The notes: generated by a model from the sequence alone, not told the origin. 64,000 nt of DNA from an uncultured Gammaproteobacteria bacterium (GCA_963746325.1 CAVVBC010000010.1:5493-69492); one strand, 5' to 3'. Positions 6,894 through 61,675 are shown, counted from the first letter of the stretch. Translations and numbers: made by a program.

Positions 6894-6916
6894 GCGCTCG
6901 ATCCGGTGCCTGTCAC
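6894..6916. repeat. orphan copy of the left arm of hairpin B (no loop, no partner nearby)
   Basis: gcgctcgatccggtgcctgtcac is identical to 7099-7121. Confidence 0.8.
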
Positions 6917-6993
6917 CGAGCACTCAAGGTCAGCCGCGCCGGTTTCCAATTCGGCACCGCGTGTCGAACACGCGAGGGCGACCAGTCGCTGGC

Positions 6994-7067
6994 GCGTCCG
7001 ACCCGGGACCGTTCCCCGAGCTTGGAAAGGCAGACACGCGCTCTGGGAACGGTCCCGGATCGGACGC
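6994..7067 (+). repeat. conserved-loop hairpin element, copy A
   Basis: Arms 6994-7016 / 7045-7067 pair at 23 bp with 1 mismatch. Loop 7017-7044 is cGAGCTTGGAAAGGCAGACACGCGCTCt. Confidence 0.9.
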
Positions 7068-7098
7068 TTGCGACATGCCAGCCTGCGACGCTGCCAGA

Positions 7099-7172
7099 GC
7101 GCTCGATCCGGTGCCTGTCACAGAGCGCGTGTCTGCCTTTCCAAGCTCGGTGACAGGCACCGGATCGAGCGC
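7099..7172 (-). repeat. conserved-loop hairpin element, copy B (inverted relative to A)
   Basis: Arms 7099-7121 / 7150-7172 pair 23/23. Loop 7122-7149 is the exact reverse complement of the copy A loop. Confidence 0.9.
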
Positions 7173-7292
7173 ACGCAAACGCGTCACTTGCGGACCTGGG
7201 CAGAGCTTCCATAGGGCGGGCGTCGCAGGCCTGCAACGCAATCCGCCCTCTGCCGCACGCAGGCGAGAGAGGGCGAACTGCAGTGGCGTGGC

Positions 7293-7712
7293 TCAGTCGT
7301 ACAACTCGGCCGGCACGTTGCCGCCGTTCTGCGCGATCTGCCGCAACACTTCCTTGTGCAGCCAGACGTTCATCTTGGCCGAGTCATGCATGAACTCCGC
7401 GGGACAGCCGAGTTCGGTGGCCAGTTCCTTGCGTTCGGTCAGGCTGCTGTCCATGCCCAGCAACTTCATCAGGTCGACGATGGACGTGCGCCAGTTGAGC
7501 TTCTGCGGCGTCTCGGCGGCCCAGCCTTCGAGCATCGCGACCACGTCGACCGCAGCCATCGGCTCCGGCTTCGGCGGCGGCGGCGGCGGAGGTGGCGGTA
7601 CGGGGGCGGCCGGTGCCGCTTGCGGCTGCACGGGCGGCGGCGGCGGAGGTGGCGGCGGGGCTGCTTTCTTCTTGAGCCCCAGCTTTTCGAGCATCGATCC
7701 GAATAGACTCAT
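7293..7712 (-). CDS. DUF3597 domain protein with poly-proline linker
   Basis: MSLFGSMLEKLGLKK, two PPPPPPPPP runs, then the C-terminal NWRTSIVDLMKLLGMDSSL...WLHKEVL domain. The start was chosen at the conserved MSLFG. Confidence 0.8.
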   Translation of the reverse strand: MSLFGSMLEKLGLKKKAAPPPPPPPPPVQPQAAPAAPVPPPPPPPPPKPEPMAAVDVVAMLEGWAAETPQKLNWRTSIVDLMKLLGMDSSLTERKELATELGCPAEFMHDSAKMNVWLHKEVLRQIAQNGGNVPAELYD

Positions 7713-7855
7713 GACGTGTCCTTTCTGGTTGGCCAAACGGCGGGCAGCGCGAGTGCACATGCGCTGCATGAGAGCTTAGAACAGGCGTGACTGAGTTCCT
7801 GCATGAATTTTAGAAGTCATGGACCGGCCCTGCCGCCGGTCAGTACGCCTGCACC

Positions 7856-9035
7856 ATGATCGCGTCGTTTAAATCGGGCTTGCCCCGCACCGTGGTGGTT
7901 CTCGGTGTCGTTTCGTTGCTGAACGACACTTCGAGCGAAATGATCACACCGCTGTTGCCGATCTTTCTCACCGCCACGCTCGGTGCGGGACCGGCCATCG
8001 TGGGCCTGGTCGAGGGACTCGCCGAGGCCACCTCGAGCGTGCTCAAGCTCGTCGCGGGCCGACTGGCCGATCGCGGGGTCGATCCGAAGTCGCTCGTCCT
8101 CGGCGGCTATGGCCTGTCCAATGCAACACGCCCGCTGCTCGGCCTCGCGACGGCCTGGAGTGCCGTGCTGCTGTTACGGTTCCTGGACCGGGTCGGGAAA
8201 GGATTGCGAACCGCGCCACGCGATGCGCTGATCGCTGGCGCCACGCCGGCCGCCGAGCGCGGTCGCGCGTTCGGCTTTCATCGGTCGATGGATCACGCCG
8301 GCGCCGTCATCGGTCCATTGATCGCCTTTGCACTGCTTGCGGCCCAGGTGCCGCTCGAGCACGTCTTTCTCGCGTCGGTCGTGCCCGGCACGCTGGTCCT
8401 GCTGCTGCTCGCCCTGGGTTTGCCGCGCGGACAGCCGTTCGTGGCGCCGCCGCGCGCTGCGTTTGCGTGGGGCTCGTTGCACGGCCGGTTGCGCGCCATG
8501 ATCGTCGCCGCCGGCTGGCTCGCCCTGGCGAGCGTGCCGGAGGTGTTCGTGGTGCTGTGGGCGACGAACGCAGGCCTGGACGTGCAGTGGGTGCCGCTGG
8601 TCTGGGCGGCTGCGAGCCTCGCCAAGATGCTGATCGCGATGCCGGCGGGCATCGTGTCGGACCGGCTCGGACGCGTCCCCGTCCTGCTGGGCGGCTGGAC
8701 GCTGCGAGTCATCGTGCTGCTCGCGCTGGCCGCGCTGGCCAGCGCCCGCGGCCTGGCAGGTGTGGCTGCTGTTCATCGCCTATTCCGCGACCCTTGCAGT
8801 CACCGAACCGGCCGAACGTTCGCTGATCGGCGACCACGCGGCGGCGCACGAGCGCGGCACTGCGTATGGCCTGTATCACCTGGCCAGCGGCTTGCTGGTG
8901 CTGCCAGGCGCCGTCCTGTTCGGCGCGATCTGGCAGTGGTTCGGTTCGAGTGCCGCCTTCGCCGTTGCGGCGCTGGTCACGGCCTGTGGCGCGGCGTGGA
9001 TGTCCTGGCTGGCGCGGGATTCCGCCCCGGCGTGA
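7856..9035 (+). pseudogene. MFS transporter, one frameshift as given
   Basis: The frame-2 ORF from 7856 (LLNDTSSEMITPLLPIFL, multi-TM) continues in frame 3 (QVWLLFIAYSATLAVTEPAERSLIGD...) to the stop at 9035. The shift is near 8755. Confidence 0.75.
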
Positions 9036-9040
9036 GCCGC

Positions 9041-9682
9041 TTAAACGCTGCCCGCGACGCGGGCGCCGTGCCGTGCGGCGAGTTCCTGCACGACCTGTTC
9101 CAGCGTGAGGCTGCGCGCCTTGAGCAGCACGAGCAGGTGGTAGAGCAGGTCGGCGCATTCGCCCACCAGTTCGCCATCGTCGCGCGTCACGGCGGCCAGC
9201 GCGGTTTCGACGCCTTCCTCGCCCACCTTCTGCGCGATGCGACCCACGCCGTCGGCGAAGAGGCGGGCGGTGTAGCTGCCCGTCGGGTTGTCCGCGATGC
9301 GCTGGGCGATCGTCGCCTGCAGGGTCGCGAGAAAAGCGATGGGCACGGCCGCGGGGTCGTGTGCTGCGGCAAAGCAGGTCGGCGTGCCGTTGTGGCAGGT
9401 CGGGCCGTCCGGATGCGCCAGTACCAGGATCGAGTCGTTGTCGCAGTCCGCACTGACGTGCGCGACCCGCAGGAAGTGGCCGGACGTCTCGCCCTTGGTC
9501 CACAGCTGGTTGCGACTGCGGCTGAAGAAGGTGACGCGGCCTTCGGCCAGCGTGCGCCGCAGTGCGGTTTCGTTCATGTACCCGAGCATCAGCACCCGCC
9601 CGTCCAGGGCGTGCTGCACGACGGCGGGCAGCAGCCCGTCACCCTTGGCCCATTCCAGGCGGGCAGGATTCAGCTCGGTCAT
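9041..9682 (-). CDS. hisIE: bifunctional phosphoribosyl-AMP cyclohydrolase / phosphoribosyl-ATP diphosphatase
   Basis: 213 aa. Carries [11 protein letters not shown] and HNGTPTCF (HisI part) plus [10 protein letters not shown] and [11 protein letters not shown] (HisE part). The ATGA overlaps the hisF stop. Confidence 0.95.
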
Positions 9683-10446
9683 GGACGGATCTCCACGCGC
9701 TGCGCGCGCAGGTAGTGCTTGAGGTCGGGAATCGCGATCGCCCCGCTGTGGAAGACGCTGGCGGCGAGCGCGCCATCGACGCCGGTCGCCGTGAACACGG
9801 CGGCGAAATGCTCCGGCAGGCCGGCGCCGCCGGAGGCGATCAGTGGCACGCGACAGAGGGTGCGCACTGCCTGCAACTGGCGCAGGTCATAGCCCTGGCG
9901 CACGCCATCGCTCGCCATGCAGTTGAGGACGATCTCGCCGGCACCGCGCTCCTGCGCCTCGCGCACCCAGTCGAGCGTCCGACGGCGCGTGCTCTGGGCA
10001 CGATCCGGGTCGCCGGTGAACTGGTGCACTTCGAAACCGTCGGCCACGGTCTGGCTGTCGACGCCGACCACGACACACTGTGAACCGAAACGGCGGGCGA
10101 GTGCATCGATGAGGTCGGGATCCGCGAGTGCGGGCGAATTCACGGAGATCTTCTCGGCGCCGGAATTGAGCACTTCCTCCGCGTCGCGCACCGAGCGAAT
10201 GCCGCCGGCGACGCAGAACGGGATGTCGAGCACGCGTGCGACCCGCTCGATCCAGCCGCGGTCGACCGAGCGATTCTCGGGGCTGGCCGTGATGTCGTAG
10301 AAGACGAGTTCGTCCGCGCCTTCCGCGCAATAGCGCGCGGCGAGTTCGAGGATGTCGCCCACGACCTTGTGCTCGCGGAACCGGACACCCTTGACGACCT
10401 GGCCATCGCGGACGTCGAGGCAGGGAATTATGCGCTTGGCAAGAAT
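9679..10446 (-). CDS. hisF: imidazole glycerol phosphate synthase cyclase subunit
   Basis: (I)[20 protein letters not shown]... There is no in-frame ATG/GTG/TTG near the conserved N-terminus. The first plausible codon is ATT (10446-10444), preceded by GGAG. Confidence 0.85.
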
Positions 10447-11171
10447 GGGGCTAGCTCCTCGACCGGAATGCGATCTTCCAGCAGTGCGCGGCCGCTGATC
10501 GCGGCGCTGGCGCCGGCGGCGGCCAGTGCGGCGAGATCGGCGCCGCTGCTGACACCACCCGATGACTGCCATTGGATCGTGGGGAACCGTCGCACGGCCT
10601 CAGCGTACAACTCGAGATTGGGGCCGGCCAGCGCGCCGTCGCGGGCCACGTCGGTGCACAGCACGTGCACGGCCCCGTGCGGCAGGTAGGCCGCTACCGC
10701 GTCCCACAGGCTCGACTCTGTCTGCGCCTCCCAGCCATGCGTCGTGAGCCGCGGCGTACCGGTTGCATCGACGCGCACGTCGAAGGCGAGAACGATGCGG
10801 TCAGGCCCGAAATCACGCAACCACTGCTGGATCTCGGGCGGATGGGTCACGGCCACGCTGCCGACGACGACGCGTCGAACACCCAGGCCGAGCAATTCGG
10901 CCGCCACGGCTCGGGTGCGGACGCCGCCGCCCACCTGGATGCCGGTATCGGCAAACGCGGTGGCGAGACCGGCAATGGCCGCCCGATTGCCCTGCGAGCC
11001 ATCGCGCGCGCCGTCGAGGTCGACGACGTGGACGTAACGCGCGCCCAGGCTGCGGTAGCGCTCCAGGATCACGCGCGGGTCGTTGCCGTAGACGGTCTCG
11101 GCGTCGAAACGGCCCTGCAGCAGTCGCACGCACTGGCCGCCGCGCAGGTCGATGGCAGGGATCAGTTGCAT
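10428..11171 (-). CDS. hisA: 1-(5-phosphoribosyl)-5-[(5-phosphoribosylamino)methylideneamino]imidazole-4-carboxamide isomerase
   Basis: [22 protein letters not shown]... with ATG at 11171. Confidence 0.9.
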
Positions 11172-11172
11172 G

Positions 11173-11771
11173 TCAGGTGAGCTCGAGGAAATTGGCGAGC
11201 ACGCGGTGTCCCGCCTGCGACGAGCGCTCCGGGTGGAACTGGGTGCCCATGAAATTGCGGTGCCGCACCACGGCGGAGAACTCGCCGCCGTAGTCGGTGA
11301 CCGCATCGGTCCAGGCGCCGACCGGCGCGCAGTAGCTGTGCACGAAATAGACGTAGGCCCCGGCGTCGAGGCCGCGCGTCAGCGGCGACTCGGGACGCGG
11401 CTGCAACTGGTTCCAGCCCATGTGCGGCACCGGAAATGCCAGGCGCGTCCGGCAGGCGGGAGACGCGCGCCGGAATGATGCCGAGGCATCCGGTCTCGCC
11501 TTCCTCGCTGGCGACGAAGAGCAGCTGCATCCCGAGGCAGATGCCCAGCACCGGCTGGGTCGAGCGTCGGGATCACGGTGGCGAGGCCAGAGGCCCGCAA
11601 GCGATCCATGGCGTCGGCTGCGGCACCCACCCCGGGCAGGATCACGCGCGGCGCTCGACGAATCTCTGCCGGGTTCGCGGTGACAGCCGACGACGCGCCG
11701 AGCCGGTCGAGCGCGAAGCGCAGCGAGGCGATGTTGGCACCGCCGTTGTCGATGATCGCGACGTCGGTCAT
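11173..11771 (-). pseudogene. hisH: imidazole glycerol phosphate synthase glutaminase subunit, two frameshifts as given
   Basis: [17 protein letters not shown], then VLGICLGMQLLF, then PHMGWNQL...FVHSY...FHPERS lie in three frames. Shifts are near 11558 (gacCCAgcc) and near 11433. Confidence 0.85.
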
Positions 11772-11787
11772 GGCCCGCTGGACTCGC

Positions 11788-12869
11788 TCACAGCACGCCC
11801 TTGCTGCTTGGCAGTTCCGTGCCCTCGATGCGCACGGCCTGGCGCAGGGCGCGTCCGGTGGCCTTGAAGCAGGCTTCGATCATGTGATGAGAGTTGTCGC
11901 CAGTGACCTGCACGTGCACCGCCGCGAGCAGCGCAGTCGGCCAGCGAACGGAAGAAATGCGGCACCAGTTCGGTGGGCAAGCCGCCGACGGCGTCGCGCC
12001 CGAACTGGCCTTCGAACACCGCATACGCGCGGCCCGAGAGGTCGATGGCTACCTGCGCCTGCGCCTCGTCCATCGGCAGCACGAAGCCGAAGCGCGCGAT
12101 GCCGCGCTTGTCGCCGAGCGCCTCGCGCAAAGCCTGGCCCAGCGCCAGCGCGCAGTCCTCGACGGTGTGGTGCTCGTCGATCTCGAGGTCGCCCGTGCAG
12201 GTGAGCTCGAGCGCGAAGCCGCCGTGCCGCGCAACCTGCTCGAGCATGTGGTCGTAGAAGCCGATGCCGGTGGCAATGGCGACGGGGCCCGCGCTGTCGA
12301 GGTTCACCCGCACCCGGATGTCGGTCTCCTTGGTCTTGCGCAAGACGGTTGCGACGCGCGTGCGGGCGGCGCAGCTGCTCGACGATGGCAGCCCACGTCG
12401 CGCCGTCGCGGCCGTCGGCGCGCACGCGCAGTCCCTGCAGCCCCAGGTTGGCGGCCAGCTGCAGGTCGGTATCGCGATCGCCGATGACGTAACTGTGGCG
12501 CGGGTCGAGCGGGTGGTCGCGCAGGTAGTCGGTGAGCAGGCCGGTCTGGGGCTTGCGGCACGCACAGCCATCGGCGGGGCGGTGCGGGCAGAAGAACTCG
12601 GCGTCGAACTCGATGCCTTGCGACGTGAAGAGTGCGCGAATGAAGTCCTGCGTCTCGCGGAAGGCGGGCTCGGGGAACGACGCCGTGCCGAGCCCGTCCT
12701 GGTTGCTGACCAGCACGAAGCGGTAGCCCGCCTGCCGCAGTTCGAGCAGGGCAGGGATGACACCGGGCAGCAGTCGCACCTTGGTCACGCTGTCGACCTG
12801 TTCGTCGGCAGGCTCTTCGACCAGCGTGCCGTCGCGGTCGATGAACAGGATGTGCTGCGCTCCGCTCAT
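11788..12869 (-). pseudogene. hisB: bifunctional histidinol-phosphatase / imidazoleglycerol-phosphate dehydratase, two frameshifts as given
   Basis: HAD part: [39 protein letters not shown] part: [29 protein letters not shown]. Shifts are near 12380 and near 11935. Confidence 0.85.
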
Positions 12870-16503: not shown

Positions 16504-16577
16504 TTGGAACGGTTTGCGCAACTCGGGGATGGGTTTGCCGGAGTCAGCCGGGCAGCTGCCAGCGCCATCAGGCGCCC

Positions 16578-16677
16578 CCGGTCCGGACGCGTCCCGAAAA
16601 ACGCCGTAAACCCGTCCCTGGGGGCTCCGGCCGCGCCATCCATGGCGCGGACGGTTTTCGGAACGCGTCCGGACCGG
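16578..16677. repeat. long imperfect palindrome (~27-bp arms) with a nested GCGCCATccATGGCGC palindrome
   Basis: ccggtccggacgcgtcccgaaaaacgccgt ... acggttttcggaacgcgtccggaccgg. Unrelated in sequence to the conserved-loop hairpin family. Confidence 0.55.
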
Positions 16678-16784
16678 AGTCGCCGCTGGCGCCGAAATGA
16701 CCTCGTAGCCTGCCGGCGTGCCAACCCCCGAGTTGCACCAGCCGTTCCTTGCGCTAACGTGCTGTGGCACCTAAACTTCCCGCC

Positions 16785-19605: not shown

Positions 19606-20745
19606 TCAGCCGGCCGCGGGTTCTAAACCTGAGCTTGACAGTTTCTGTGGATAAGTCTCTAAGTAATTGAATTTTAATGGTTTGACATTAGACCGATCGA
19701 CGACGGCTGCCCCCGCCTCCCGGCTGCCTACGGGGGTCTTGCCGGGCAGGGCGATGTCGGTGGTGCGCACGCCCGACGTGAGGGCGGATTCCACGGCCGC
19801 CTCGACCGCCAGCGCCTCGTCCTCCAGTCCGAGCGAATGCCGCAGCAGCAGCGCCGCGCTCAGGATGGTGCCGTACGGATTCGCGATACCGCGACCTGCG
19901 ATGTCCGGCGCCGAGCCGTGGATGGGTTCGTACAGGCCGTTGCTGCCTTCGCCGAGCGACGCCGACGGCAACAGCCCCAGCGAGCCGACGATCATCGAGG
20001 CTTCGTCGGTCAGGATGTCGCCGAACATGTTCTCGGTGAGCAGGACGTCGAACGAGGCGGGCCGGCGGATCAGGTGCATCGCGGCCGCATCGACCAGCAT
20101 GTGTTCGAACTCGACTTGCGGGAATTCCTCGCGCAGCACGCGCTCGGCAACGGATCGCCACAGCCGCGACGTCTCGAGCACGTTGGCCTTGTCGACCGAG
20201 ACGATGCGGCGCCGCCGGCCCAGCGCCAGCCGGCCTGCCATGCGCGTGACGCGCTCCACTTCGGCGGTCGTGTAGGTGCAGACGTCTTCGGCTTCGTGCG
20301 CCGTGCGGCTCTTCCTGCCGAAGTAGATGCCGCCCGTGAGTTCGCGCACGACCATGATGTCGGTGCCCTTGATGATCTCGGGCTTGAGCGGCGAGGCATC
20401 CAGCATCGAGTCCATGGTGCGGACGGGACGCAGGTTGGCGAACACGCCGAGCGTGCGGCGCAATTCCAGCAGGCCTTGCTCAGGCCGCACGCGCGCGGCC
20501 GGGTCGGACCACTGCGGGCCGCCCACCGCGCCGAGCAGCGTCGCGGCACTCTCACGGCACGCGTCGATCGTGCGCGGCGGCAGTGCGGAACCGGAGGCAT
20601 CGATGGCAGCGCCGCCGATCAGGGCTTCGGCGAACTCGAACTCGTGGCCGTGACGGGCTGCGACGGCCTGCAGCACCCGGACGGCCTCGGCCGTGACCTC
20701 GGGGCCGATGCCGTCGCCACCGAGTACTGCAATGCGGGCCTTCAT
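19606..20745 (-). CDS. leuB: 3-isopropylmalate dehydrogenase
   Basis: [17 protein letters not shown] and [10 protein letters not shown]. The last ~25 codons (19606-19680) are AT-rich and atypical, so the true stop is probably near 19680. Confidence 0.9.
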
Positions 20746-21327
20746 GCGCGCTTTTCCCGCGCGCGCTCGTAGCGCTCGATTGCTTCCACCTGGCTCAGCA
20801 GGTAGCCGAGTTCGTCGATGCCGTTCATGCAGGCAATAGCGCGAGAACGACTCGATGGGGAAGCTCACGGCGCGGCCGTCGGGCAGCCGCAGGACGGAGG
20901 CGGGCAGGTCGATCTCGACCTCGGCGCCCGGGTTGGCGAGCAGCCATTCATGCGTGGCGGCGTCGACGACGACCGGCAGCAGGCCGTTCTTCAGGCTGTT
21001 GTTGCGGAAGATGTCGGCGATCTCGGTGCTGATGACCACCCGGATACCGAAGTCGAGCAGGGCCCAGGGCGCGTGTTCGCGCGACGAGCCGCAGCCGATG
21101 TTGCGGCCGGCGACCAGCACCTGGCAGCCCTGCGCGGCAGGCGTGTTCAGCACGAAGTCAGGCTTCGGCTGGCCGTCCTTGTCGTACCGCCAGTCTGCAA
21201 ACAGCGAGACGCCGAGCCCATCGCGCACCGTGGTGGTGAGGAAGCGGGCCGGGATGATCTGGTCGGTGTCGATGTTGGTGGACGGCATGACGACCGTCCG
21301 CGAGCGGATGACTGTGATCGGGTCCAT
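20742..21327 (-). pseudogene. leuD: 3-isopropylmalate dehydratase small subunit, one frameshift as given
   Basis: [30 protein letters not shown]. The C-terminus [21 protein letters not shown] is in another frame, with the shift near 20828. The TGA overlaps the leuB ATG. Confidence 0.9.
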
Positions 21328-21365
21328 GTGGGGCTCTGGTTCGTTGTCTGGTGCGGGGCCCCGGC

Positions 21366-22770
21366 TCAGCCGAGGAACTCGCGCGGGTCGGTGACGCGAC
21401 CGCGCACCGCGGCAGCAGCGGCGGAGGCCGGGCTGGCGAGCAGCGTGCGTGCGCCGACGCCTTGCCGGCCTTCGAAGTTGCGGTTGCTGGTGCTGACGCA
21501 GTACTGCCCGGCGTCGACGAGATCGCCATTCATGCCGAGGCACATCGAGCAGCCCGACTCGCGCCATTCGGCGCCGGCGTCGATGAAGACCTGCGCGAGG
21601 CCCAGCTGCTCGGCTTCCAGCTTGATCTGCTGCGAACCCGGCACGACCAGCGCGCGCACGCCTGCGGCCACCTTGCGACCGCGCATGACGTGGGCGGCCG
21701 CTTCCAGGTCCGAAAGGCGCGCGTTGGTGCAGCTGCCGATGAAGACGACCTGCACCGGCTTGTCGGCCATGCGCTCACCGGCGGTGAGGCCCATGTAGGC
21801 GAGCGACTTGGCAAAGACGGCATCGCCCGGACGTTCCGGCACGTTGCCGCTGATCGTGGTGACCATGCCGGGGTTGGTGCCGAACGTGATCATCGGCTCG
21901 AGCGTGGTGGCGTCGAGCGTCACCGACTGGTCGAACGTAGCGCCCGGATCGCTGCGCAGCGTCTGCCAGTCGGCCACGGCCTGGTCCCAGTCCGCGCCCT
22001 GCGGCGCGAAGGGCCGGCCCTTCAGGTAGTCGAAGGTCGTCGCGTCCGGCGCGATCATGCCGGCACGGGCACCGGCCTCGATCGACATGTTGCAGACCGT
22101 CATGCGCTCGTCCATCGACATCGCCTCGATGGTGGAGCCGCGGAACTCGATGACGTGGCCGGTGCCGCCGTTCACGCCGATCTTGCCGATCACGGCCAGC
22201 ACGACGTCCTTGGCCGACACGCCCGCGCGGCAGCGTGCCGTTGACGACGACTTCGAGCGTCTTCGGCTTGCGCTGCAGCAGGCACTGCGTGGCGAGCACG
22301 TAGCCGACTTCCGTGGTGCCGATGCCGAAGGCGAGGGCGCCGAATGCCCCGTGCGTGCTGGTGTGGCTGTCGCCGCACACGATCGTCTTGCCGGGCTGCG
22401 TGGCGCCCTGTTCCGGACCGATGATGTGGACGATGCCACGGCGCGAATCCTGCAAGCCGATCAGGTTCACGCCGAATTCGGCGCAGTTCACCTCGAGCTG
22501 GCGCACCTGCTTGGCGGCGGACTCGAGCTTGATGGGCAGGCCGCCGAAGATCTGTGCCGTGTCGGTGGGGGTGGAGTGGTCCATCGTCGCGAGCGTGCGA
22601 TCGAGCCGGCGAACCGGCAGCTTGCGTGCGCGCAGCACGTCGAACGCCTGCGGCGAGGTGACTTCGTGAGTCAGGTGCAGGTCGATGTACAGCACGGCCG
22701 GTGTGTCGGCCGTCTCGGGCACGACCACGTGCCGCTCCCAGACTTTTTCGAACAGGCTCTGCGCAGGCAT
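21366..22770 (-). pseudogene. leuC: 3-isopropylmalate dehydratase large subunit, one frameshift as given
   Basis: [14 protein letters not shown]...[13 protein letters not shown], then [17 protein letters not shown]...[11 protein letters not shown] in another frame. The shift is near 22235. Confidence 0.9.
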
Positions 22771-27214: not shown

Positions 27215-27236
27215 GGCAGGTCGAGCACACGGGGCG

Positions 27237-27306
27237 GGTCGGTTCAGTGGCTCGTCCGGAGCGCGTGTCTGCCTTTCCAAGCTCAGGACGAGCCACTGAA
27301 CCGACC
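27237..27306 (-). repeat. conserved-loop hairpin element, copy C
   Basis: Arms 27237-27257 / 27286-27306 pair 21/21. Loop 27258-27285 is gGAGCGCGTGTCTGCCTTTCCAAGCTCa. Confidence 0.9.
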
Positions 27307-27312
27307 TGCCAC

Positions 27313-28625
27313 GTGATCGACCTGCGCTACGAGCGGCGTGCCTGGACGCTGATCTACCTGTGCCTCGGCCTGGTCGAGGGCGGCACGGCCGCGGTGATGG
27401 TGCGCGCGCTGTTCGGCGACCAGGCGCCGCGCGCTCGCGGTCGACCTCGTGGTCGCGCTGTCGTCAGTGCCGCGCCGGCGTGGTCGAACCTCGCGAGCAT
27501 GGCGTATGCGCGACGCGCGCAGGGGCAGCGCAAGATTTCATTCCTGTTTCCGCTGCTGCTCGCGCTGACGGCCTGCGTGGGCGCGCTGGCGCTGGTGCCG
27601 CAAGAGCGGGGCAGGGCTGCTGCTGTTCCTGGCGCTGTACGCAGCGGCCCGGCTGCTGTGGGCCGGCGTCGAAACCGTGCGCTCGGTGCTCTGGAGCGTG
27701 AACTACCCGGCGCGGCTGCGGGCACGCATCACCGGCCGCATCACCGTCAACACGTCGATCGCGCTCGCGATCACGGGCCTCGGCATCGGCTGGCTGCTGG
27801 GCCACGACGGACCGTGGTGGCGACTGGCGATCGTCGCGGGCGCCGGCTGCGGCGTGGCCGGCGCGCTGGCGTTCCGCCAGTTCAAGGTGCGCCGCGAAGA
27901 CGACCTGCTGGCCGCGGAGCGCAGCCCGGCTGGAGGAGGGCGCGTCATTCGGCATCGGCGGCATGCGCGAGTTGCTGGCCCGCGACGAGCCGTTCCGGCG
28001 GTATCAATACGCGATGTCGGTGTTCGGCGCCGGCATGCTGTCGCTGACGCCGCTGATGGTGATCTGCCTCGGCGACGTGCTGGGCCTGCCGGCGCTGTGG
28101 CAGGTGCTGGTCATGACGGCGGTGCCGGTGCTCGTGGTGCCGTTCGCGATCCAGCCCTGGGCGCGTTACCTGGACCTGCAACCGGGTGGTCGCGTTCCGC
28201 TCGGTCCACGGCAAGGTCACGCTGGTCGCGGTCGCACTGCTGGTTGCCGCCGTGCTGTTGCAGGGTGCCGTGGCTGCTGGCGCCCGGGCTCGCTGCTGCT
28301 CGGCACGAGCCTCGCGGCGGGCAATCTCGGCTGGACCCTGGGCCACAACGACTTCGCGCCCCGCGGCGAGGAAACACGCTACATGGCGCTGCATGTGACG
28401 CTGACCGGCATGCGCGGGCTGGTCGCGCCGCCCCTCACGATCGGCTTCTATCACCTGCTCGACCACCTGCGAACCGGACTCGGTCCGGGCGCGCTGCTGC
28501 TGCCGTTGCTGCTCGTGGGCAGCGGCGCGTATCAGTTCCACACGCATGCGCCGCGCGCAGCTCGCGGCAAACGCGGCGTGACCGCTGCGCGGCCAGACCG
28601 CACAATGACCCCGACTGCAACATGA
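27313..28625 (+). pseudogene. MFS-type membrane transporter, at least 5 frameshifts as given
   Basis: Hydrophobic segments are spread over all three frames: VIDLRYERRAWTLIYLCLGLVEGG, GLLLFLALYAAARLLWAGVETVRSVLWSVNYP, GMRELLARDEPFRRYQYAMSVFGAG, VAFRSVHGKVTLVAVALLVAAV and LLLGTSLAAGNLGW. Confidence 0.55.
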
Positions 28626-34466: not shown

Positions 34467-34503
34467 AAGGGGCGGGGACGCAAGTCTCCGCCCCTTTTCA
34501 TTT
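34467..34503 (+). terminator. intrinsic terminator after the TPR gene
   Basis: AAGGGGCGGGGA-cgcaag-TCTCCGCCCCTT followed by TTCATTT. Confidence 0.75.
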
Positions 34504-34513
34504 GCGTCTCCTG

Positions 34514-34588
34514 CAGCGGCTCACTCCAATCGCGCAGTCATGGCAGATCACGGCAGCGGCTCACCCCAATGGCTTGTCCGGCGCTTGG
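34514..34588 (+). repeat. two partial tandem copies of the left arm of hairpin D
   Basis: cagcggctcactccaat (34514-34530) and cagcggctcaccccaatggcttgtccggcgcttgg (34554-34588) match 34608-34642. Confidence 0.75.
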
Positions 34589-34611
34589 GTATTTGCAGCA
34601 GTCCTGACAGC

Positions 34612-34683
34612 GGCTCACTCCAGTGGCTTGTCCGGCGCTTGGAAAGGCAGACACGCGCGCCGGACAAGCCATTGGAGTGAGCC
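34612..34683 (+). repeat. conserved-loop hairpin element, copy D
   Basis: Arms 34612-34636 / 34659-34683 pair at 25 bp with 1 mismatch. Loop 34637-34658 is GCTTGGAAAGGCAGACACGCGC. Confidence 0.9.
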
Positions 34684-34821
34684 ACTGCCTGAGGGTGCCG
34701 TTGCAGCTTCCAGATGCCGCACCGCGTGGGCAATGGCGCCGATCCTTGGCACGCGTGAAGTTGGGCTGCGGTCAGGGCGGGTCGTTCGGTGGCGCGCGTG
34801 ACGCCGGGCTGCAATCAAGGC

Positions 34822-34893
34822 GGGGCGTTCCGCCGATTCCCCCGTAGCGCGTGTCTGCCTTTCCAAGCGGAGGGGGAATCGGCGGAATGCCCC
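34822..34893 (-). repeat. conserved-loop hairpin element, copy E
   Basis: Arms 34822-34843 / 34872-34893 pair at 22 bp with 1 mismatch. Loop is gtaGCGCGTGTCTGCCTTTCCAAGCgga. Confidence 0.9.
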
Positions 34894-34963
34894 GCAGCAC
34901 CCGCCCGCAGCACCCGCCACTGCACACGCCCGCAGCCCAAGCCCCGCGCCAATGACCCCGCCC

Positions 34964-35001
34964 AAGAAAAAGGCCCCGCAGGACGCGCCCGCGAGGCCTT
35001 T
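34964..35001 (-). terminator. probable intrinsic terminator after the minus-strand TPR gene
   Basis: The minus strand reads AAAGGCCTCGC-loop-GCGGGGCCTTT followed by TTCTT. Confidence 0.55.
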
Positions 35002-35038
35002 CTGATCCAGCAGAGTCGCCGGACTGGGACGGACGGGC

Positions 35039-44081: not shown

Positions 44082-44105
44082 TCCGACATCGCGCTGTTCC
44101 CGCGA

Positions 44106-44137
44106 TGTCCTGCCGCGCTGGAAAGGCAGACATGCGC
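44106..44137 (+). repeat. conserved-loop hairpin element, truncated/degenerate copy F1 (arm end plus loop, no right arm)
   Basis: tgtcctgCCGCGCTGGAAAGGCAGACATGCGC differs from F2 by one deletion and one substitution. Confidence 0.7.
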
Positions 44138-44143
44138 TAGTTG

Positions 44144-44225
44144 CAGGCGCTCGACCCGGCATTGTCCTGCCGCGCTTGGAAAGGCAGACACGCGCGCGTC
44201 AGGACAATGCCGGGTCGAGCGCCTG
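44144..44225 (+). repeat. conserved-loop hairpin element, copy F2
   Basis: Arms 44144-44169 / 44200-44225 pair 26/26. Loop is ccgcGCTTGGAAAGGCAGACACGCGCgcgt. Confidence 0.9.
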
Positions 44226-44281
44226 ACATCACCGTCCTCCGTATCTTTTCCGAGTGCACGAAAGGCTGAGGCGCTGTTGCA

Positions 44282-44366
44282 ACTGCAGCGGTTGATCCGG
44301 GACCTTCCCCCGAGCGCGTGTCTGCCTTTCCAAGCTCGGGGGAAGGTCCCGGATCGACCGCCTGCA
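44282..44366 (-). repeat. conserved-loop hairpin element, copy G1
   Basis: Arms 44282-44310 / 44337-44366 pair at ~29 bp with 1 indel and 1 mismatch. Loop is GAGCGCGTGTCTGCCTTTCCAAGCTC. Confidence 0.9.
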
Positions 44367-44423
44367 GTGAGCACGTGTCTGCCTTTCCCAGTTCGCGGCA
44401 AGGTCCCGGATCGACCGCCTGCA
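44367..44423 (-). repeat. conserved-loop hairpin element, half copy G2 (loop variant plus second copy of the right arm)
   Basis: tgaGCACGTGTCTGCCTTTCCCAGTTCgc plus ggcaaggtcccggatcgaccgcctgcag. It has no left arm of its own. Confidence 0.8.
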
Positions 44424-48847: not shown

Positions 48848-50084
48848 ATGGAATGTTTCGGTAGCGGGCGTTCCGCCGCGCTCACGTTGGCAGTTGCATT
48901 GGTCGTCGGTTCTGCCACCGCCGCGCCAGCGTCCGCGGAAGACACCGGCCGCAGCTTCGAGCTGTACGGCTTCGCGCAGGCCGATTTCATCCAGGACTTC
49001 GACGGCCGTCTCGACCCGGACTGGGACGATGCGTTCCGCCCCTCGAAGATCGGCATCGACGAGCAGTTCGGCAGCGACGGGCAGTCGAGCATCAGCGTCA
49101 AGCAGAGCCGCTTCGGCGTCAAAGGCAGCATGCCGACGGGCGAGGGCGGCACGCCGCTCACGCTTCAAGTTCGAGTTCGACCTGTTCGGCACCGGCGCCG
49201 ACGCCGGGCCAGACCACGTTCCGCCTGCGCCACGCCTACGGCGAGTGGGGCCCGCTGCTGGCGGGACAGACCAACACCCTGTTCATGGACGGCGACGTGT
49301 TCCCCAACACGATCGACTACTGGGGCCCGGCGGGCATGGTGTTCTACCGCAACGTGCAGCTCCGCTAGACGCCGTTCAAGTCGGACAACAGCCATTTCTC
49401 GATCGCCGATCGAGCGCCCGGGCAACGACATCGATTCCGGCAACCTGCGCCTGATCGAAGGCTTCGAAAACCTGCAGGTGCAGAACGACGAGACGCTGCC
49501 GGACCTGACCGCGCAGTACCGCTACGGCGGCGACTGGGGTCACGTGCAGGTCGGCGGGCATCCTGCGCAAGGTCGGCTTCGAGGTGCGCGAGTCGTCGGC
49601 CGATCGCTGGCGAAGCGGCAGCGAGACCGGCTGGGGCATCAACCTCGGCTCCTCGATCAACACGATCGGCAGCGACAAGATCCTGCTGCAGGTCGTGTAC
49701 GGCGAGGGCATCGCCAGCTACATGAACGACGGCGGCATGGACCTGGCGCCGACCGCGACGTTCGACGAGAACGCGGTGACCGACGTCGAGGCGGAGGCCA
49801 TCCCGCTCACGGGCGTCGTCGCCTACTACGACCACTACTGGACCCCGAAGTGGTCGAGCTCGATCGGCTACAGCTACACGGAAGTCGACAACACCAACTT
49901 CCAGGCGGCCGACACGTTCAACAAGGGCGAGTACGCCTCGGTGAACCTGCTGCACTTTCCGGGCGAGAACCTGATGCTCGGCGGCGAGTTCCTCTACGGC
50001 CGGCGCACCAACAACGACGGGGCGGACGGCGACGACATGCGCTTCCAGTTCACGGTCAAGTACAACTTCGGCATCAAGCTCTGA
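48848..50084 (+). pseudogene. outer-membrane porin (DcaP-like), about 4 frameshifts and one in-frame TAG as given
   Basis: A signal peptide, then FELYGFAQADFIQDF, FKFEFDLFGTGADAG, TTFRLRHAYGEWGPLLAGQTNTLF...NVQLR*TPFK, IERPGNDIDSGNL and the final 166-aa piece lie in alternating frames. The TAG is at 49366-49368. Confidence 0.6.
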
Positions 50085-50110
50085 TACCGAGCGAATCGAG
50101 GGACACGATC

Positions 50111-51146
50111 ATGAAAACTATCAACAGGAATTCGCTGGCCGCCGGGCTGGTGGCCACGCTGTCTCTCGCGCTGGCGGCGCCTGCATACGCGAAAGGGCCG
50201 CTGCCGGACCCGGCCGTCAAGGACTTCCAGCGCCTGGTCGACGCCGCCTACGCCAAGTACAAGGGGCTGCAGGACGGCAAGAACGCCGACTACATCCCGA
50301 TCCTGACCGAGACGCCGAGCGACCTGTTCGGCGTGGTGATCGTCACCAAGGACGGCAAGGTCTACAGCGCCGGCGACGTCGACTACCAGTTCTCGATCCA
50401 GTCCGTGTCGAAGCCGTTCACGGCCGCGCTGGTGATGACGCAGCAGGGCCCGGCGGTGCTCAAGGAGAAGATCGGCGTCGAGCCCACGGGCATGGCGTTC
50501 AACTCGAAGCTGGCGCTGTCGGTCTACGAGAACTCGGTGAATCCGCTGGTCAACGCCGGTGCGATCGCGGCCGTGAGCCTGGTGCAGGCCAAGTCCGAGG
50601 CGGACCGCTGGAACCAGGTGTCGCAGAACCTGAGCGACTTCGCCGGGCGCCCGCTGACCGTGCTGGAGAAGGTGTACGAGTCTGAATACACCACGGCCTT
50701 CGGCAATCGCGGCATCGCCAACCTGCTGTACAACTGGGGCCGTCTCTACAGCGACCCAGAGGAAGCGCTCGCGGGTGTATACGCGTGAGTGCTCGGTCGG
50801 TGTCAGCGCCAAGGACCTCGGCATGATGGGCGCGACGCTGGCCAACGGCGGCGTCAATCCGCTGACCAAGAAGCAGGTGATGCCGGCCAAGCACGTGCCG
50901 GAGCTGCTGGCGATCATGGCGACGGCCGGGTTCTATGACGAATCGGGCGACTGGATGTACACCGCGGGCTTGCCGGCCAAGACCGGCGTCGGCGGCGGCA
51001 TCGTGGCGGTCGTGCCGGGCCGGTTCGCGATCGCAGCGTTCTCGCCGCGCCTGAACGAGGCGGGCAACAGCGTCCGTTCGCTGAACGCCATCCGCGACAT
51101 CGCGGGTGAACTCGGCGTCGGCGTGTTCGGGGCGAATCCGGAGTGA
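50111..51146 (+). pseudogene. glsA: glutaminase A with signal peptide, one frameshift as given
   Basis: MKTINRNSLAAGLVATLSLALAAPAYA...SIQSVSKPF...NPLVNAGAI, then VYTRECSVGVSAKDLG...AKTGVGGGI in another frame. The shift is near 50775. Confidence 0.85.
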
Positions 51147-55458: not shown

Positions 55459-55556
55459 GCGGATGAGACCCGGGAAAACCGGCGCGGTTCGGTGCCGGCC
55501 GTTTTAACATGCTCGCCGCCCTCTGGGGGGCGAGCGCACAGCAGTCCACGGAGCCT

Positions 55557-56552
55557 ATGCCCAATTTCCGCAGCCTCGGTCCTGGCCTGGTCATCGCCGG
55601 GCTCGTCGCACTCGCCGCGTCCTGGTTGGCCGAGCACTACGCAACCCCGGTCATGCTGTTCGCGCTGCTGCTCGGCATCGCCGTCAACTTCCTGTCGCAG
55701 GACGAGCGCTGCAAGCCGGGCCTCGAGTTCGCCTCGCGCAACGTCCTGCGCGTCGGCGTCGCGCTGCTCGGAGCGCGCATCACCTTCGATCAGGTCCAGT
55801 CGCTCGGTGTCGGCGCGATTGCGCTGACCGCCACGGCGGTCATCCTCACGATCCTGTGCGGCATCGCGCTCGCGCGCGCGACCGGCCTGCCGCGCCAGTT
55901 CGGCGTGCTCACCGGCGGCGCGGTGGCGATCTGCGGCGCCTCCGCGGCGCTCGCCATCGCGTCGGTGCTGCCACGCGGACCGGAGCACGAGCGGGACACG
56001 ATCATGACGGTCGTGGCCGTCACGACGCTGTCGACGATCGCCATGGTGCTGTATCCGGTGCTGGCCGCTGCCGATCGGCTTCGACGAGCACACTACAGGC
56101 GTGTTCCTCGGCGCGACCATCCATGACGTAGCCCAGGTCGTCGGCGCGGGCTACAGCGTGTCGACGGTGGCGGGCGACACCGCGACGATCGTCAAGCTGT
56201 TCCGGGTCGCACTGCTGCTGCCGGTGGTGCTGGCGATCTCGTTCGTGCTGCAACGTTCCATGATCCGGGCGACGCCCGGCGCCGAGCACGGCCGCCCTTG
56301 CTGCCCGGGTTCCTGGTGGCGTTTGCCGCGCTGGTCGTGGTGAATTCGCTCGGCTGGCTGCCGGGAGCGGTCACGCACGGCCTGCAGGAGGCGTCGCGCT
56401 GGTGCCTGGTGCTGGCCATTGCGGCACTCGGCACGCGCACGTCACTCGGCGACCTCGCGCAGGTCGGGTGGCGGCCGGTGGCGATCGTCGTCGGCGAGAC
56501 GCTGTTCGTCGGCTTGTTCGTGCTGGCCGGGCTGGCGTTCCTGGGGCGGTAG
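55557..56552 (+). pseudogene. YeiH/UPF0324 family membrane protein, two frameshifts as given
   Basis: [17 protein letters not shown]...[14 protein letters not shown], then [17 protein letters not shown], then LPGFLVAFAALVVVNS... lie in three frames. Shifts are near 56075 and near 56290. Confidence 0.75.
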
Positions 56553-56566
56553 GGGCGTCTTGTAAC

Positions 56567-56644
56567 GACGGTGTTCCGTCCGTTCCTCTTCCGGCGAGCG
56601 GAAAGGCAGACACGCTCGCCGGAAAGAACGGACGGAACACCGTC
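56567..56644 (+). repeat. conserved-loop hairpin element, copy H (shortened core)
   Basis: Arms 56567-56599 / 56614-56644 pair at ~31 bp with a 2-nt bulge. The loop is GGAAAGGCAGACAC. Confidence 0.85.
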
Positions 56645-56670
56645 TCAGCACGTGCACGCTGCCCGACCAG

Positions 56671-57418
56671 TCAGCCGCGCAGCGACTGCAACAACTGCGG
56701 CAATACGTCGCCTGACGGACCGCGCAACGTGAAATCCGCGAGCGGCGTGAGCGCAGTCGGTTCGGTGTTGATTTCGATCACGATCGCGCCGCACTGCCGG
56801 GCATTCGCGGCAAGCCCCGCAGCCGGATAGACGACCGACGCGGTGCCGATCGACATGAAGACGTCGCAAGCAGCCACTGCCTGCATCCGCTGCCACCAGC
56901 GCCCGCGGCGGGATCGCTTCACCGAACCAGACGACGTCAGGCCGCAGCAGCGCGCCGCAGCGTGCGCACTCGGGCAGGCCGGTGACGGAGCGGGTTGAAC
57001 GCTCGGCCAGCGTACCTTCGGCGCAGCAGCGATCGCGCAGGATGTTGCCGTGGTATTCGATGACGCCAGTGCTGCCCGCGCGTTGGTGCAGGCCGTCGAC
57101 GTTCTGCGTGACCAGCGTCAACTTCGGCACCCGTGCGGCCAGTTGCACCAGCGCGAGGTGCCCCGCGTTGGGTTCGACGCCGCGCACGAGTTCGCGGCGC
57201 CATTCGTACCAGTCCCAGATGCGCCTGGGATCGCGCGCGAAGGCCTCGGGTGTCGCCAGGTCCTCAGGGCGGAACTTCGCCCAGAGGCCGGTCTGCGCGT
57301 CGCGAAACGTGGGTACGCCGCTTTCCGCCGAGATGCCCGCACCGGTCAGCACGCAGACCTGCCGTGCTTTTCCTATCGCTGTCGCCGCAGCGAGCAGGTC
57401 CGTGGGGATAGCCGACAT
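56671..57418 (-). pseudogene. cobB: NAD-dependent protein deacylase (Sir2 family), one frameshift as given
   Basis: VLTGAGISAESGVPTFR...QNVDGLH...CARCG, then CDVFMSIGTASVVYPAAGL in another frame. The shift is near 56905. Confidence 0.85.
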
Positions 57419-57450
57419 TTCCGACTATCCCCTAGTCCCTGATCCCTTCC

Positions 57451-60148
<2,698 letters not shown>

Positions 60149-60188
60149 GGAACCTCCGGGACGAAAATCGTGCGCGTTAACCGCGGAA

Positions 60189-61301
60189 TTATAGCGCGGA
60201 TGCGCGTGCCGGTTCGACTGCCGGCGTGGCGGCGCGCTGGGCCGCGATGACCGCGCCGCCCAGGCATTCCTCGCCCCGGTAGAACACGGCGGACTGGCCG
60301 GGGGTCACGGCACGCTGCGGCACGTCGGTACGCACCCGGCAGCGGCCATCCGGCAGGATGTCGACCTCGCAGGCCTGGTCGGCCTGCCGATAGCGGGTCT
60401 TGACTGTGCAGCGAAATTGCTGGCCGGGCGCCGCGCCCGCAATCCAATGGGCCGGTTCGGTGCGGAATTCGTCGCACAGCAGCAGCGGGTGGTCGTGCTG
60501 CTGCACGACCACGAGCGTATTGCGGGCGAGGTCCTTCACCGCGACGTACCAGGGCTTTTCCGCCGCGCCGCGCACGCCGCCGACCTCCAGGCCCTGGCGC
60601 TGCCCCAGCGTGTAGTACATCAGGCCGCGATGCGTGCCCAGGCGCTGGCCAGCCGGTGTTTCGATCGGCCCGGGCTGCGCGGGCAGGTAGTCCGCCAGGA
60701 ACTCGGCGAACGGCCGCTCGCCGATGAAGCAGATCCCCGTGCTGTCGCGCTTGTCGTGCACCGGCAGCGCGTGCTGGTGCGCGAGTCGCCGCACCTCGTC
60801 CTTGGGCAGGTCGCCGACCGGAAACAGCGTGCGGGCGAGCAGCGCACCGGACACGGTGTGCAGAAAGTACGTCTGGTCCTTGCCCTGGTCGAGCCCGCGC
60901 AGCAGGCGACCCTCCTGCATGCGCGCGTAGTGACCGGTGGCGAACCAGTCGGCGCCGAGGCGCAGCGCATGTTCGTAGCAGACGCCGAACTTGATCTCGC
61001 GATTGCAGGCGACGTCGGGGTTCGGGGTGCGCCCTGCCGCGAGTTCGTCGAGGAAATGCTGGAACACGCGGTCGCGGTATTCGGCCGCGAAGGTGACCGC
61101 GTGCAGCGGAATGCCCAGGTCGTCGCAGACGCGGCGCGCGTCCTGCAGGTCGGCGGCGGCCGTGCAGTAGCCGTCCTCGTCCTCGTCCCAGTTGCGCATG
61201 AAGAGCGCGTGCACGTCGTAGCCCGCGCGCTGCAGCAGCACGGCGGCGACGGCCGAATCGACGCCGCCGGAAATGGCGAGCACTACGCGCTGGGACGACA
61301 T
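60189..61301 (-). CDS. mnmA: tRNA 2-thiouridine(34) synthase
   Basis: 370 aa with [22 protein letters not shown] and GHYAR. Intact. Confidence 0.95.
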
Positions 61302-61385
61302 GCGGGGATTTTACAGGCTCCGGGACGTTGCTTGCGCTATGCGATCTTTCCGCGCAGCGCGAGGCATTCGCGGCAGCTCGGGGAC

Positions 61386-61482
61386 GGCATTCACCGAGCG
61401 GCCCCTCTCACGCCTTCCCCCTCGCTTGGAAAGGCAGACACGCGCTCGCGGGAAGGCGTCAGAGGGGCCGCTCGTGAATGCC
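61386..61482 (+). repeat. conserved-loop hairpin element, copy I1
   Basis: Arms of ~33 bp pair with 1 indel and 1 mismatch. The loop is cctcGCTTGGAAAGGCAGACACGCGCtcgc. Confidence 0.9.
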
Positions 61483-61544
61483 TTTCCCTCGCTGGCAGGG
61501 CAGGTGCGCTCGAGGAAAGGCGTCGGAGGTCCCGCTTGCGAATG
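61483..61544 (+). repeat. conserved-loop hairpin element, decayed tandem half copy I2
   Basis: tttccctcgctggcagggcaggtgcgctcgaggaaaggcgtcggaggtcccgcttgcgaatg parallels the inner arm, loop and right arm of I1 with many substitutions. Confidence 0.6.
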
Positions 61545-61599
61545 TCTCGCTAGGGTGCGTTGTCATCTTCAGGTGCGCGGAACTAGCGCGGGCCGGAGC

Positions 61600-61675
61600 G
61601 GGCGGTCTGAGGCCCTTGCCCAGAGCGCGTGTCTGCCTTTCCAAGCTCGGGGCAAGGGCCTCAGAGCGGCCGCCC
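61600..61675 (-). repeat. conserved-loop hairpin element, copy J
   Basis: Arms 61600-61621 / 61650-61675 pair with a 4-nt bulge. Loop 61622-61649 is identical to 7122-7149. Confidence 0.9.

Follow-up and report, generated by a model that had tools for sequence, protein, structure and literature searches.

An uncatalogued family of long intergenic hairpins with an invariant loop in a Steroidobacteraceae-like chromosome, and its comparison with REP, BIME and REPIN repeats

Interspersed palindromic repeats of the REP, BIME and REPIN types rank with the most numerous non-coding elements in the chromosomes of bacteria, and their working is settled for few model families. REPs are bound by TnpA-REP in single-stranded form and on one strand only, with the loop being of importance for group 3 REPs (PMC8266576); in REPIN doublets, compensatory changes have been documented (PMC3116915). 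The 64,000-nt stretch CAVVBC010000010.1:5493-69492 from an uncultured Gammaproteobacteria bacterium (referred to as the window in its entire length) carries a repeat whose unit is a hairpin of ~82 nt with a stem of 28-32 bp and an invariant 18-nt loop. The host chromosome is that of a Steroidobacteraceae-like soil or sediment bacterium, and the repeats form an uncatalogued family of interspersed palindromes, of the kind represented by REP, BIME and REPIN sequences, that is restricted to its clade and inverts the usual conservation pattern: the loop is invariant, and the arms drift with compensation. The first-pass annotation of this DNA had presented the conserved loop with changing arms as the opposite of the pattern in REPs and miniature inverted-repeat transposable elements (MITEs); this contrast was overstated, since compensatory stem changes are found in REPINs (PMC3116915) and loop bases are recognized by some TnpA-REP proteins (PMC8266576). 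The explanation favored here, to which we give about even chances of being correct, is that of a REP/REPIN-like repeat working as a folded single DNA strand, the loop of which is read by a putative protein.

The 22-mer GCTTGGAAAGGCAGACACGCGC matched the window exactly at nine positions and at one more with three mismatches (0 matches expected from 100 shuffles), and the 13-mer subcore GGAAAGGCAGACA revealed further copies at 44120(+) and 56600(+), giving a total of 12 copies at six intergenic loci (numbered in the following in their order along the window; see Table 1), besides which several decayed copies are present. The original description of the core as a hairpin loop at six intergenic loci was confirmed by these copies and by their absence from the chance expectation, and the reading of the loci verified the three identical 28-nt stretches (7017-7044, 7122-7149 and 61622-61649). 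The latter had been taken for the loops, a length that proved too long because GAGC/GCTC or GCGC/GCGC on the two sides of the core form base pairs. This leaves a true loop of 18 nt (TTGGAAAGGCAGACACGC), and in the short-loop variant at 56567-56644 it comprises just 12-14 nt. According to an inverted-repeat scan and the reading of the six loci, the core of the full window copies is bordered by arms of 24-35 nt with 83-100% complementarity, the near-perfect stems measuring 21-32 bp; the arm pairings quoted in the annotation were recovered by the scan with 91-97% over 28-35 nt (7099-7126/7145-7172: 28 nt, 96%; 44144-44175/44194-44225: 32 nt, 97%; 27228-27262/27281-27315: 35 nt, 91%). As single strands, the window hairpins folded with z values of -7.9 to -11.7 versus shuffles. 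Both core orientations are present and the window loci lie mostly between convergent genes, in agreement with the initial statement on orientation and gene 3' ends.

In the 841 kb analyzed, the core sits in the loop of 149 of the 159 long hairpins. Since the external loci were collected by loop sequence, loop invariance is partly a product of the collection, but it is still real; in the window, which was not fetched by loop, nearly all of the long, well-paired hairpins carry the core in their loop. The sole long window hairpin devoid of the family loop (16571-16684; 33-nt arms, 88% complementary, 48-nt centre, no core) is unrelated to the family and located just upstream of an S-adenosylmethionine riboswitch (RF00162, 16784-16901 (+), 74 bits), the sole Rfam match above gathering score in the window.

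Outside the window, at least 107 loci were retrieved from species-representative genomes, originating from at least 22 metagenome-assembled genomes (MAGs) labelled Steroidobacteraceae or uncultured Gammaproteobacteria, and a scan of JGI metagenomes yielded 120 further contigs with the core. Among the matches listed, two more core contigs were binned elsewhere (L091 and L098, in MAGs labelled Thermoanaerobaculia and Burkholderiaceae, respectively); these labels could result from mis-binning or from transfer outside the clade. There were 0 matches to the core in a viral contig scan and no match to the repeat in a plasmid collection (blastn). No Rfam family was matched at either gathering or permissive thresholds, the hairpins giving just sub-threshold generic microRNA-precursor hits, and the literal core string was absent from the searched papers; this agrees with the earlier remark that the core was not recognized from a catalogued family. 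A literature search on palindromic intergenic repeats in Steroidobacter returned nothing relevant. An assembly or sequencing artefact, or chance, as the source of the family is effectively refuted: some window genes look frameshifted, as in error-prone long-read assemblies, but no matches are expected by chance, the family recurs in independent MAGs, Illumina-only assemblies included, as well as in the JGI metagenome contigs, and its orthologous copies are conserved.

The arms, which had been described as hypervariable and as sharing little between copies, are one drifting homologous family. A strong stem was present in 152 of the 217 copies with flanks, and arms paired with those of other copies reached a median score of 5. 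The 134 well-paired distinct copies gave the arm consensus GCGGtCGATCCGGgGCCTTTCCCCGAGC and the full unit GCaGGCGgcCGATCCGGgGCCTTTCCCCGAGC-loop-GCTCGGGGAAAGGCcCCGGATCGAcCGCTTGc, with a distal (CGATCCGG) and a proximal (CCCCGAGC) conserved block and variable stem positions 8-15 and 24-25. When copies with ≤3 differences were joined by single linkage, 86 of 156 fell into one cloud and 12 into a second class; with this cloud and the clear consensus with its conserved blocks, the claim of hypervariable arms was overstated. The presence of only a few arm classes, named beforehand as an outcome that would speak against the original proposal, was observed in part, with stem conservation both inside subfamilies and between orthologous loci.

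Arm variation occurs at defined positions through paired Watson-Crick changes. In 59 thinned copies, 92.8% of the stem cells were paired, each of the 32 stem pairs exhibited changes on both sides, and the covariation score was 0.554 in comparison with 0.179 in shuffles (reached in 0 of 500 shuffles, no slid register coming near); the maintenance of the stem as a structure is thus supported. Two origins of the arms were considered and rejected, namely insertion of the core into the centre of existing palindromes or terminators and fold-back copying of the local flank: both are at odds with the family consensus common to the arms and with the lack of complementarity between a pair's outer arms. 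Fold-back synthesis of the arms, put forward in the annotation, received no direct support; compensated one-nucleotide indels (see below) suggest some arm-to-arm templating.

Which strand folds was indicated by the mismatches in the stems. On the strand of the quoted core, 113 A.C mismatches were counted versus 29 G.T, and pyrimidine-pyrimidine mismatches far exceeded purine-purine ones; the asymmetry was kept after thinning to 40 representatives (A.C versus G.T, 37 versus 8) and was replicated in 130 new metagenome copies (97 versus 32; C-containing versus G-containing mismatches, 180 versus 40), being about 4:1 overall. C-containing mismatches on the core strand mean stable G.T, G.A and G.G on the complementary strand, which carries the loop 5'-GCGTGTCTGCCTTTCCAA-3'. 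Calculated with DNA parameters, folding was better for the complementary strand in 114 of 134 copies (difference of 1.95 kcal/mol, versus 0.59 for perfect-stem controls), and one T.G wobble on this strand is conserved in four species. Mutational bias as the source of the asymmetry was not supported, the decayed loops showing no excess of the substitutions that it would need; replication direction was rejected because both orientations occur within one locus. As a duplex or cruciform site would not give such an asymmetry, it is probably one strand that is preserved. The earlier proposal of selection on a displayed single strand is in line with the stem covariation, the constrained loop and the mismatch asymmetry; it requires correction in that the best-folding strand is the complement of the quoted core and that RNA is the weaker option.

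The distinction between DNA and RNA was approached by means of the gene context. With genes predicted by a GC3-based caller (G+C content at third codon positions), the groups of copies were assigned to convergent (84), co-directional (39) and divergent (5) contexts. E. coli REPs stabilize upstream mRNA, and the hairpins could likewise be RNA elements of 3' untranslated regions that act as stabilizers of mRNA 3' ends, as processing or termination signals, or as a displayed RNA loop with a protein or another RNA as its ligand. This interpretation is in accordance with the E. coli precedent, with the position at gene 3' ends, mostly between convergent genes, with the strong stem covariation and with the tolerance of G.U-type wobbles on one strand; it is regarded as unlikely because the wobble-tolerant strand is more often antisense to the neighbouring gene. 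Indeed, in solo copies the less stable strand was the one in mRNA sense in 14 versus 5 cases for co-directional gaps and in 20 versus 13 relative to the nearest convergent gene. Furthermore, the repeat stems are not followed by a T-run (a U-tract in RNA), the locus-4 element revealed neither promoter-like nor terminator-like sites, Rfam offers nothing beyond the aforementioned generic long-hairpin hits, and a perfect duplex of 28-32 bp would presumably be a substrate of RNase III and not a stabilizer. At locus 3, the convergent genes possess their own terminator-like hairpins with T-runs (34467-34505 (+) and ~34965-35003 (-), conserved in L040), each of which follows the stop codon of its gene and precedes the repeat units, so that the latter are placed downstream of the hairpins; with the missing T-run and these separate terminators, a function of the repeat hairpins as intrinsic terminators was rejected. 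Taken together, the context evidence favors single-stranded DNA over RNA. At the same locus, hairpin 34820-34895 is adjoined by GC-rich short direct repeats (gcagcacccgcccgcagcacccgcc...; 34896-34945).

The arrangement of the units follows a strict polarity. Neighbours at a distance of ≤700 nt displayed the loop(+)/loop(-) orders +- 66, -+ 1, ++ 27 and -- 14 in the genomes and +- 49, -+ 0, ++ 18 and -- 22 in the metagenome sample, i.e. 115 loop(+)...loop(-) arrangements versus 1 reversed. Same-sense neighbours are almost all 57-59 nt apart in the genomes (33 of 40 in the metagenome sample): the 57-nt period corresponds to arm+loop, and the arrays read (arm+loop)n+arm', with the innermost unit intact and the outer loops decayed. 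The decayed loop+arm unit 61480-61545 is an exception to this array rule: relative to hairpin 61388-61477 it has an inner position, whereas extra units at other places are outer ones. A CRISPR-like reading of the period was rejected, as the "spacers" consist of arms that are nearly identical and decay affects the outer repeats, and simple slippage does not produce (arm+loop)n arrays.

On its inner side, each hairpin is adjoined by a conserved second hairpin module (GCGCCTGAGCG..TTTTCCGC-loop-GCGGAAAA..CGCACGGCGC). The pairs form the compound inverted ends (about 80-150 bp, around a variable centre; a single central palindrome in short forms) of foldback elements of ~230-420 bp, which are sometimes flanked outside by decayed 57-nt arm+loop units; the spacers of the pairs range from 99 to 666 nt and are often unique, and spacers as well as inner modules are palindromic, conservation being seen in the inner module and the palindromic spacers. 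Composites homologous to 44144-44361 over the spacer as well were identified in three species at the corresponding locus and in three others at a separate one (window locus 6). An element of 349-355 bp is present at no fewer than eight loci of MAG CAWJXS with 91-99% identity, TA/TA flanks being found in 4 of 7 copies, and within it the arms of units 7020/7125 recur unchanged at at least eight loci of one MAG; this TA-flanked version is the only clear sign of recent multiplication. In the window, the left TA flank of the 349-bp element (6861-6863; right flank 7212-7213) is part of the TAG stop of a short-chain dehydrogenase gene (6159-6863), and the element therefore abuts the coding sequence exactly.

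TA flanks occur in Correia elements and IS630-type MITEs. An ordinary MITE family, in which a DDE transposase binds duplex inverted ends, the palindromy is incidental or an aid to synapsis and the "loop" is a duplex binding site, would account for the compound inverted-repeat ends, for the strict +/- arrangement that terminal inverted repeats give, and for the recently multiplied version with flanks like those of IS630/Tc1-type elements. We consider this quite unlikely: duplex recognition explains neither the arm covariation around an invariant centre nor the 4:1 strand asymmetry, solo hairpins persist long at orthologous sites, and neither the hairpin units themselves nor the other composites yielded a target duplication. 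Moreover, in the TA-flanked element additional ends of its own (GGGAAGCTCTGC...) lie beyond the hairpins, and the element may thus just have captured hairpin units. The 1.5 Mb of fetched DNA yielded no autonomous element with such ends.

Syntenic loci from other species were present in the sample, and there the orthologous hairpins were 92-98% identical versus 59-79% at third codon positions of the neighbouring genes; the comparison, which had been proposed as a way to observe arm turnover at orthologous sites, accordingly revealed conserved arms. The solo hairpin 27228-27315 was found with almost the same arms in five species (that of the window and four others), and in hairpin Y of locus 4, neither arms nor loop differ among four species (identity of 96-100% for an 82-nt segment). 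Hairpin X exists in three versions (GGCATTGTCC, GGC-CTGTCC and GGCA-TGTCC), each with an almost exactly matching opposite arm, which corresponds to compensated one-base indels. At locus 3, three-unit arrays with different arm classes are present in both the window and L040. As a result of the locus-level conservation and the matched changes, the arms are to be seen as stable per locus, different between loci and changing in concert.

At locus 4, the entire X-S-Y block (S, composite spacer) is inverted between species, and its outer half-units fit a crossover between inverted copies. Together with the orthologous conservation far above the neutral level, and with distant +...- pairs that enclose small accessory cassettes, toxin-antitoxin pairs included, this would suit host-domesticated chromosomal sites, either bound by protein as cruciform or duplex (the gyrase-, IHF- or nucleoid-protein-type roles proposed for BIMEs) or serving as recombination sites for inversion or exchange of the +/- segment. 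Such a role appears distinctly improbable, since strand asymmetry would not be expected of a cruciform or duplex site, the inversion is explicable by ordinary homologous recombination between inverted repeats of 60-80 bp, and no invertase or integrase gene was seen nearby, i.e. in the window and between the distant pairs. The distant loop(+)...loop(-) pairs, 0.9-3 kb apart (see Table 1), enclose cassettes of lower G+C (0.60-0.66) that encode a HigB/HigA-like pair, a RES/Xre-like toxin-antitoxin pair, a helix-turn-helix and a membrane protein, and a hydrolase. The presence of a transposase between these pairs was rejected, just accessory cassettes being found, and the identical L132 and L225 cassettes do not speak for cassette mobility: the compared cassettes are orthologous loci and not demonstrated transfers.

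Table 1. Positions of the repeat units and associated modules in the window, and of cassette-enclosing pairs in other loci (percentages give arm complementarity)
Feature	Position	Strand	Remarks
Composite foldback element (MITE-like), 349 bp	6863-7211		outer inverted ends start GGGA(A/C)GCTCTGC; TA on both flanks; contains units 6894-6940, 6994-7067, 7099-7172
Outer decayed unit	6894-6940	+	arm 6894-6916 = arm 7099-7121, then degenerate core cgagcACTCAAGGTCAGCCGCGCC; read from sequence and alignment
Full hairpin unit	6994-7067	+	loop 7022-7039; 28-nt arms, 93%
Full hairpin unit	7099-7172	-	loop 7127-7144; 28-nt arms, 96%; z = -8.8
Solo hairpin unit	27228-27315	-	loop 27263-27280; gap of ~95 nt; flanking genes co-directional
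Tandem of two decayed arm+core units	34511-34607	+	unit 2: arm 34552-34584, degenerate core TTGGGTATTTGCA
Full hairpin unit	34608-34687	+	loop 34639-34656; 31-nt arms, 94%
Full hairpin unit	34820-34895	-	loop 34849-34866; 24-nt arms, 96%
Outer decayed unit	44085-44143	+	X-type arm with 17-nt insertion, degenerate core 44118-44135, linker TAGTTG
Full hairpin unit X	44144-44225	+	loop 44176-44193; 32-nt arms, 97%; z = -11.7
Composite spacer	44226-44287		itself an imperfect palindrome; conserved in 7 loci
Full hairpin unit Y	44288-44361	-	loop 44316-44333; 28-nt arms, 96%
Outer decayed unit	44362-44419	-	57 nt from unit Y; degenerate core 44373-44390 (3 mismatches) and Y-type arm
Solo hairpin, short-loop variant	56567-56644	+	loop GGAAAGGCAGACAC, 56600-56613; between convergent genes; z = -11.0
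Full hairpin unit, divergent arms	61388-61477	+	loop 61426-61443
Decayed partial copy	61480-61545	+	degenerate core CTGGCAGGGCAGGTGCGC, then arm like preceding right arm; read from sequence
Full hairpin unit	61591-61680	-	loop 61627-61644
Outer extension module	61681-61736		common to copies in other genomes: 110-136 nt matches reaching 61728-61736 in L029, L059, L092, L074
Cassette-enclosing +/- pairs	L019 3970-5569; L139 512-2267; L132 417-1451; L225 449-1452; L170 2907-4558		

The genes of the window are all housekeeping genes. Two long open reading frames (ORFs) joining domains that usually belong to separate proteins, 2069-4615 (+) (amino-acid kinase, ACT and Orn/DAP decarboxylase) and 19609-21567 (-) (Aconitase_C and isopropylmalate dehydrogenase), are either real fusions or artefacts of longest-ORF selection. 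In region 48848-51143, a glutaminase domain is split over the overlapping ORFs 48848-50785 and 50775-51143, and at 55509-56552 three overlapping ORFs end with just the C-terminus of a Cons_hypoth698 protein; the split ORFs of both regions represent long-read frameshift errors or pseudogenes.

In the favored REP/REPIN-like explanation, the acting form would be a folded single DNA strand, not the duplex and probably not RNA. The folding strand would be the one with the complementary loop given above, and a putative sequence-specific protein may read this loop together with the conserved stem blocks and mobilize or maintain the elements in trans. Arm complementarity would be kept by selection on the hairpin of the folding strand, probably with the help of template switching from one arm to the other as the DNA is replicated; the compensated indels would be accounted for in this way. 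Template switching homogenizes the arms of inverted repeats and can invert the spacer (PMC8604942, PMC7202029); it may be considered a sufficient known mechanism for the compensated indels of this family. Rather doubtful, but conceivable, is a more far-reaching version: the loop would be the ligand of a hitherto undescribed hairpin-specific single-stranded DNA enzyme or binding protein that is not a RAYT of the GTAG-dependent type and that mobilizes, inverts or maintains double-hairpin elements and the cassettes flanked by them, the arms being re-templated, so that loop and fold alone would be inherited faithfully.

Several observations weigh against the folded-strand explanation. The asymmetry could still come from a strand-specific mutation or repair bias tied to element polarity, the same signature is given by G.U-tolerant RNA folding on the complementary strand, and the context statistics rest on a gene caller that is crude. 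High orthologous conservation could reflect a host function and not that of a mobile element. Neither the window nor the DNA between the distant +/- pairs revealed a gene for a transposase (RAYT, Y1 or other) or recombinase, the sampled DNA corresponding to ~1% of each genome; copies within one genome outside MAG CAWJXS are just 70-88% alike, and ongoing mobility is consequently unproven for most of the family. With respect to the REP affiliation, known REPs are units of 23-40 nt with loops of 3-5 nt in comparison with ~82 nt, a 28-32 bp stem and an 18-nt loop here, i.e. the present unit is two to three times longer; the GTAG foot of REPs was not found, the feet TTGCAG/TTGCAA/TCGCGA on both strands simply extending the stem. 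These two defining REP features, size and GTAG foot, thus fail, and with a RAYT link that is at most putative, the repeat was not filed as a REP.

The family is of interest beyond its own classification. It is conserved at orthologous sites where third codon positions have just 59-79% identity; the mismatch signature constitutes a cheap general test for duplex, single-strand or RNA action in any palindromic repeat family, and the loop is a ready bait for a partner protein in a poorly studied, environmentally common clade. With the strand-asymmetry signature and the invariant 18-nt loop, the mechanism becomes directly testable.

Among the described systems, the Correia/NEMIS elements of Neisseria and the ERIC/IRU elements resemble the family as small non-coding intergenic foldback elements with inverted ends, and TA flanks in one subfamily here are a further likeness to Correia elements and IS630-type MITEs; however, their terminal repeats are conserved and their centre is free, whereas the present elements have palindromic ends with an invariant centre and compensated, strand-asymmetric arms. 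Terminal inverted repeats as in MITEs are present in the form of compound ends of 80-150 bp, with further outer repeats in the 349-bp element. Integron attC sites are likewise imperfect palindromes recognized as one folded strand, with variation that keeps the structure and with small cassettes including toxin-antitoxin genes; in reverse to the present family, attC conservation resides at the stem base (R/L boxes, GTTRRRY) and the centre is variable, and attC sites form same-orientation arrays beside intI with R''/R' boxes, none of which were seen here, where the units alternate in orientation. The subterminal hairpins of IS200/IS605 are single-strand hairpins read strand-specifically by a Y1 HUH enzyme, which is the likeness; but both of their end hairpins are on the same strand, whereas the two ends of the present elements have their stable hairpins on opposite strands and no tnpA/tnpB is located between them.

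With the REPINs of Pseudomonas fluorescens (PMC3116915), the family has in common the inverted doublets with a self-pairing spacer, the compensatory changes, the variant cloud and the long chromosomal persistence. Doublets of inverted units with a hairpin-forming spacer, by which REPINs are recognized, were indeed the rule (115 versus 1, as above), and near-identical copies at at least eight sites, as expected of a replicating doublet, were found only for the 349-355 bp element of CAWJXS. Differences from REPINs are that a single unit by itself forms a long hairpin, the asymmetric loop of which is conserved, that the spacers vary (99-666 nt) and that each end contains an extra inner hairpin module. 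The REP/BIME sequences associated with RAYT in E. coli, Stenotrophomonas and Marinomonas are, like the present repeats, extragenic, high-copy, promoter-avoiding palindromes of alternating orientation; with six loci in 64 kb, the concentration at gene 3' ends agrees with that typical of REPs, and the tandem 57-nt arm+loop arrays represent a difference. The closest precedent may be seen in Y1/HUH enzymes such as TnpA-REP and the TnpA of IS200/IS605, which read one hairpin strand: in the REP/RAYT system, one folded DNA strand is recognized, loop included (PMC8266576), and the mismatch asymmetry of the present family would follow the same logic.

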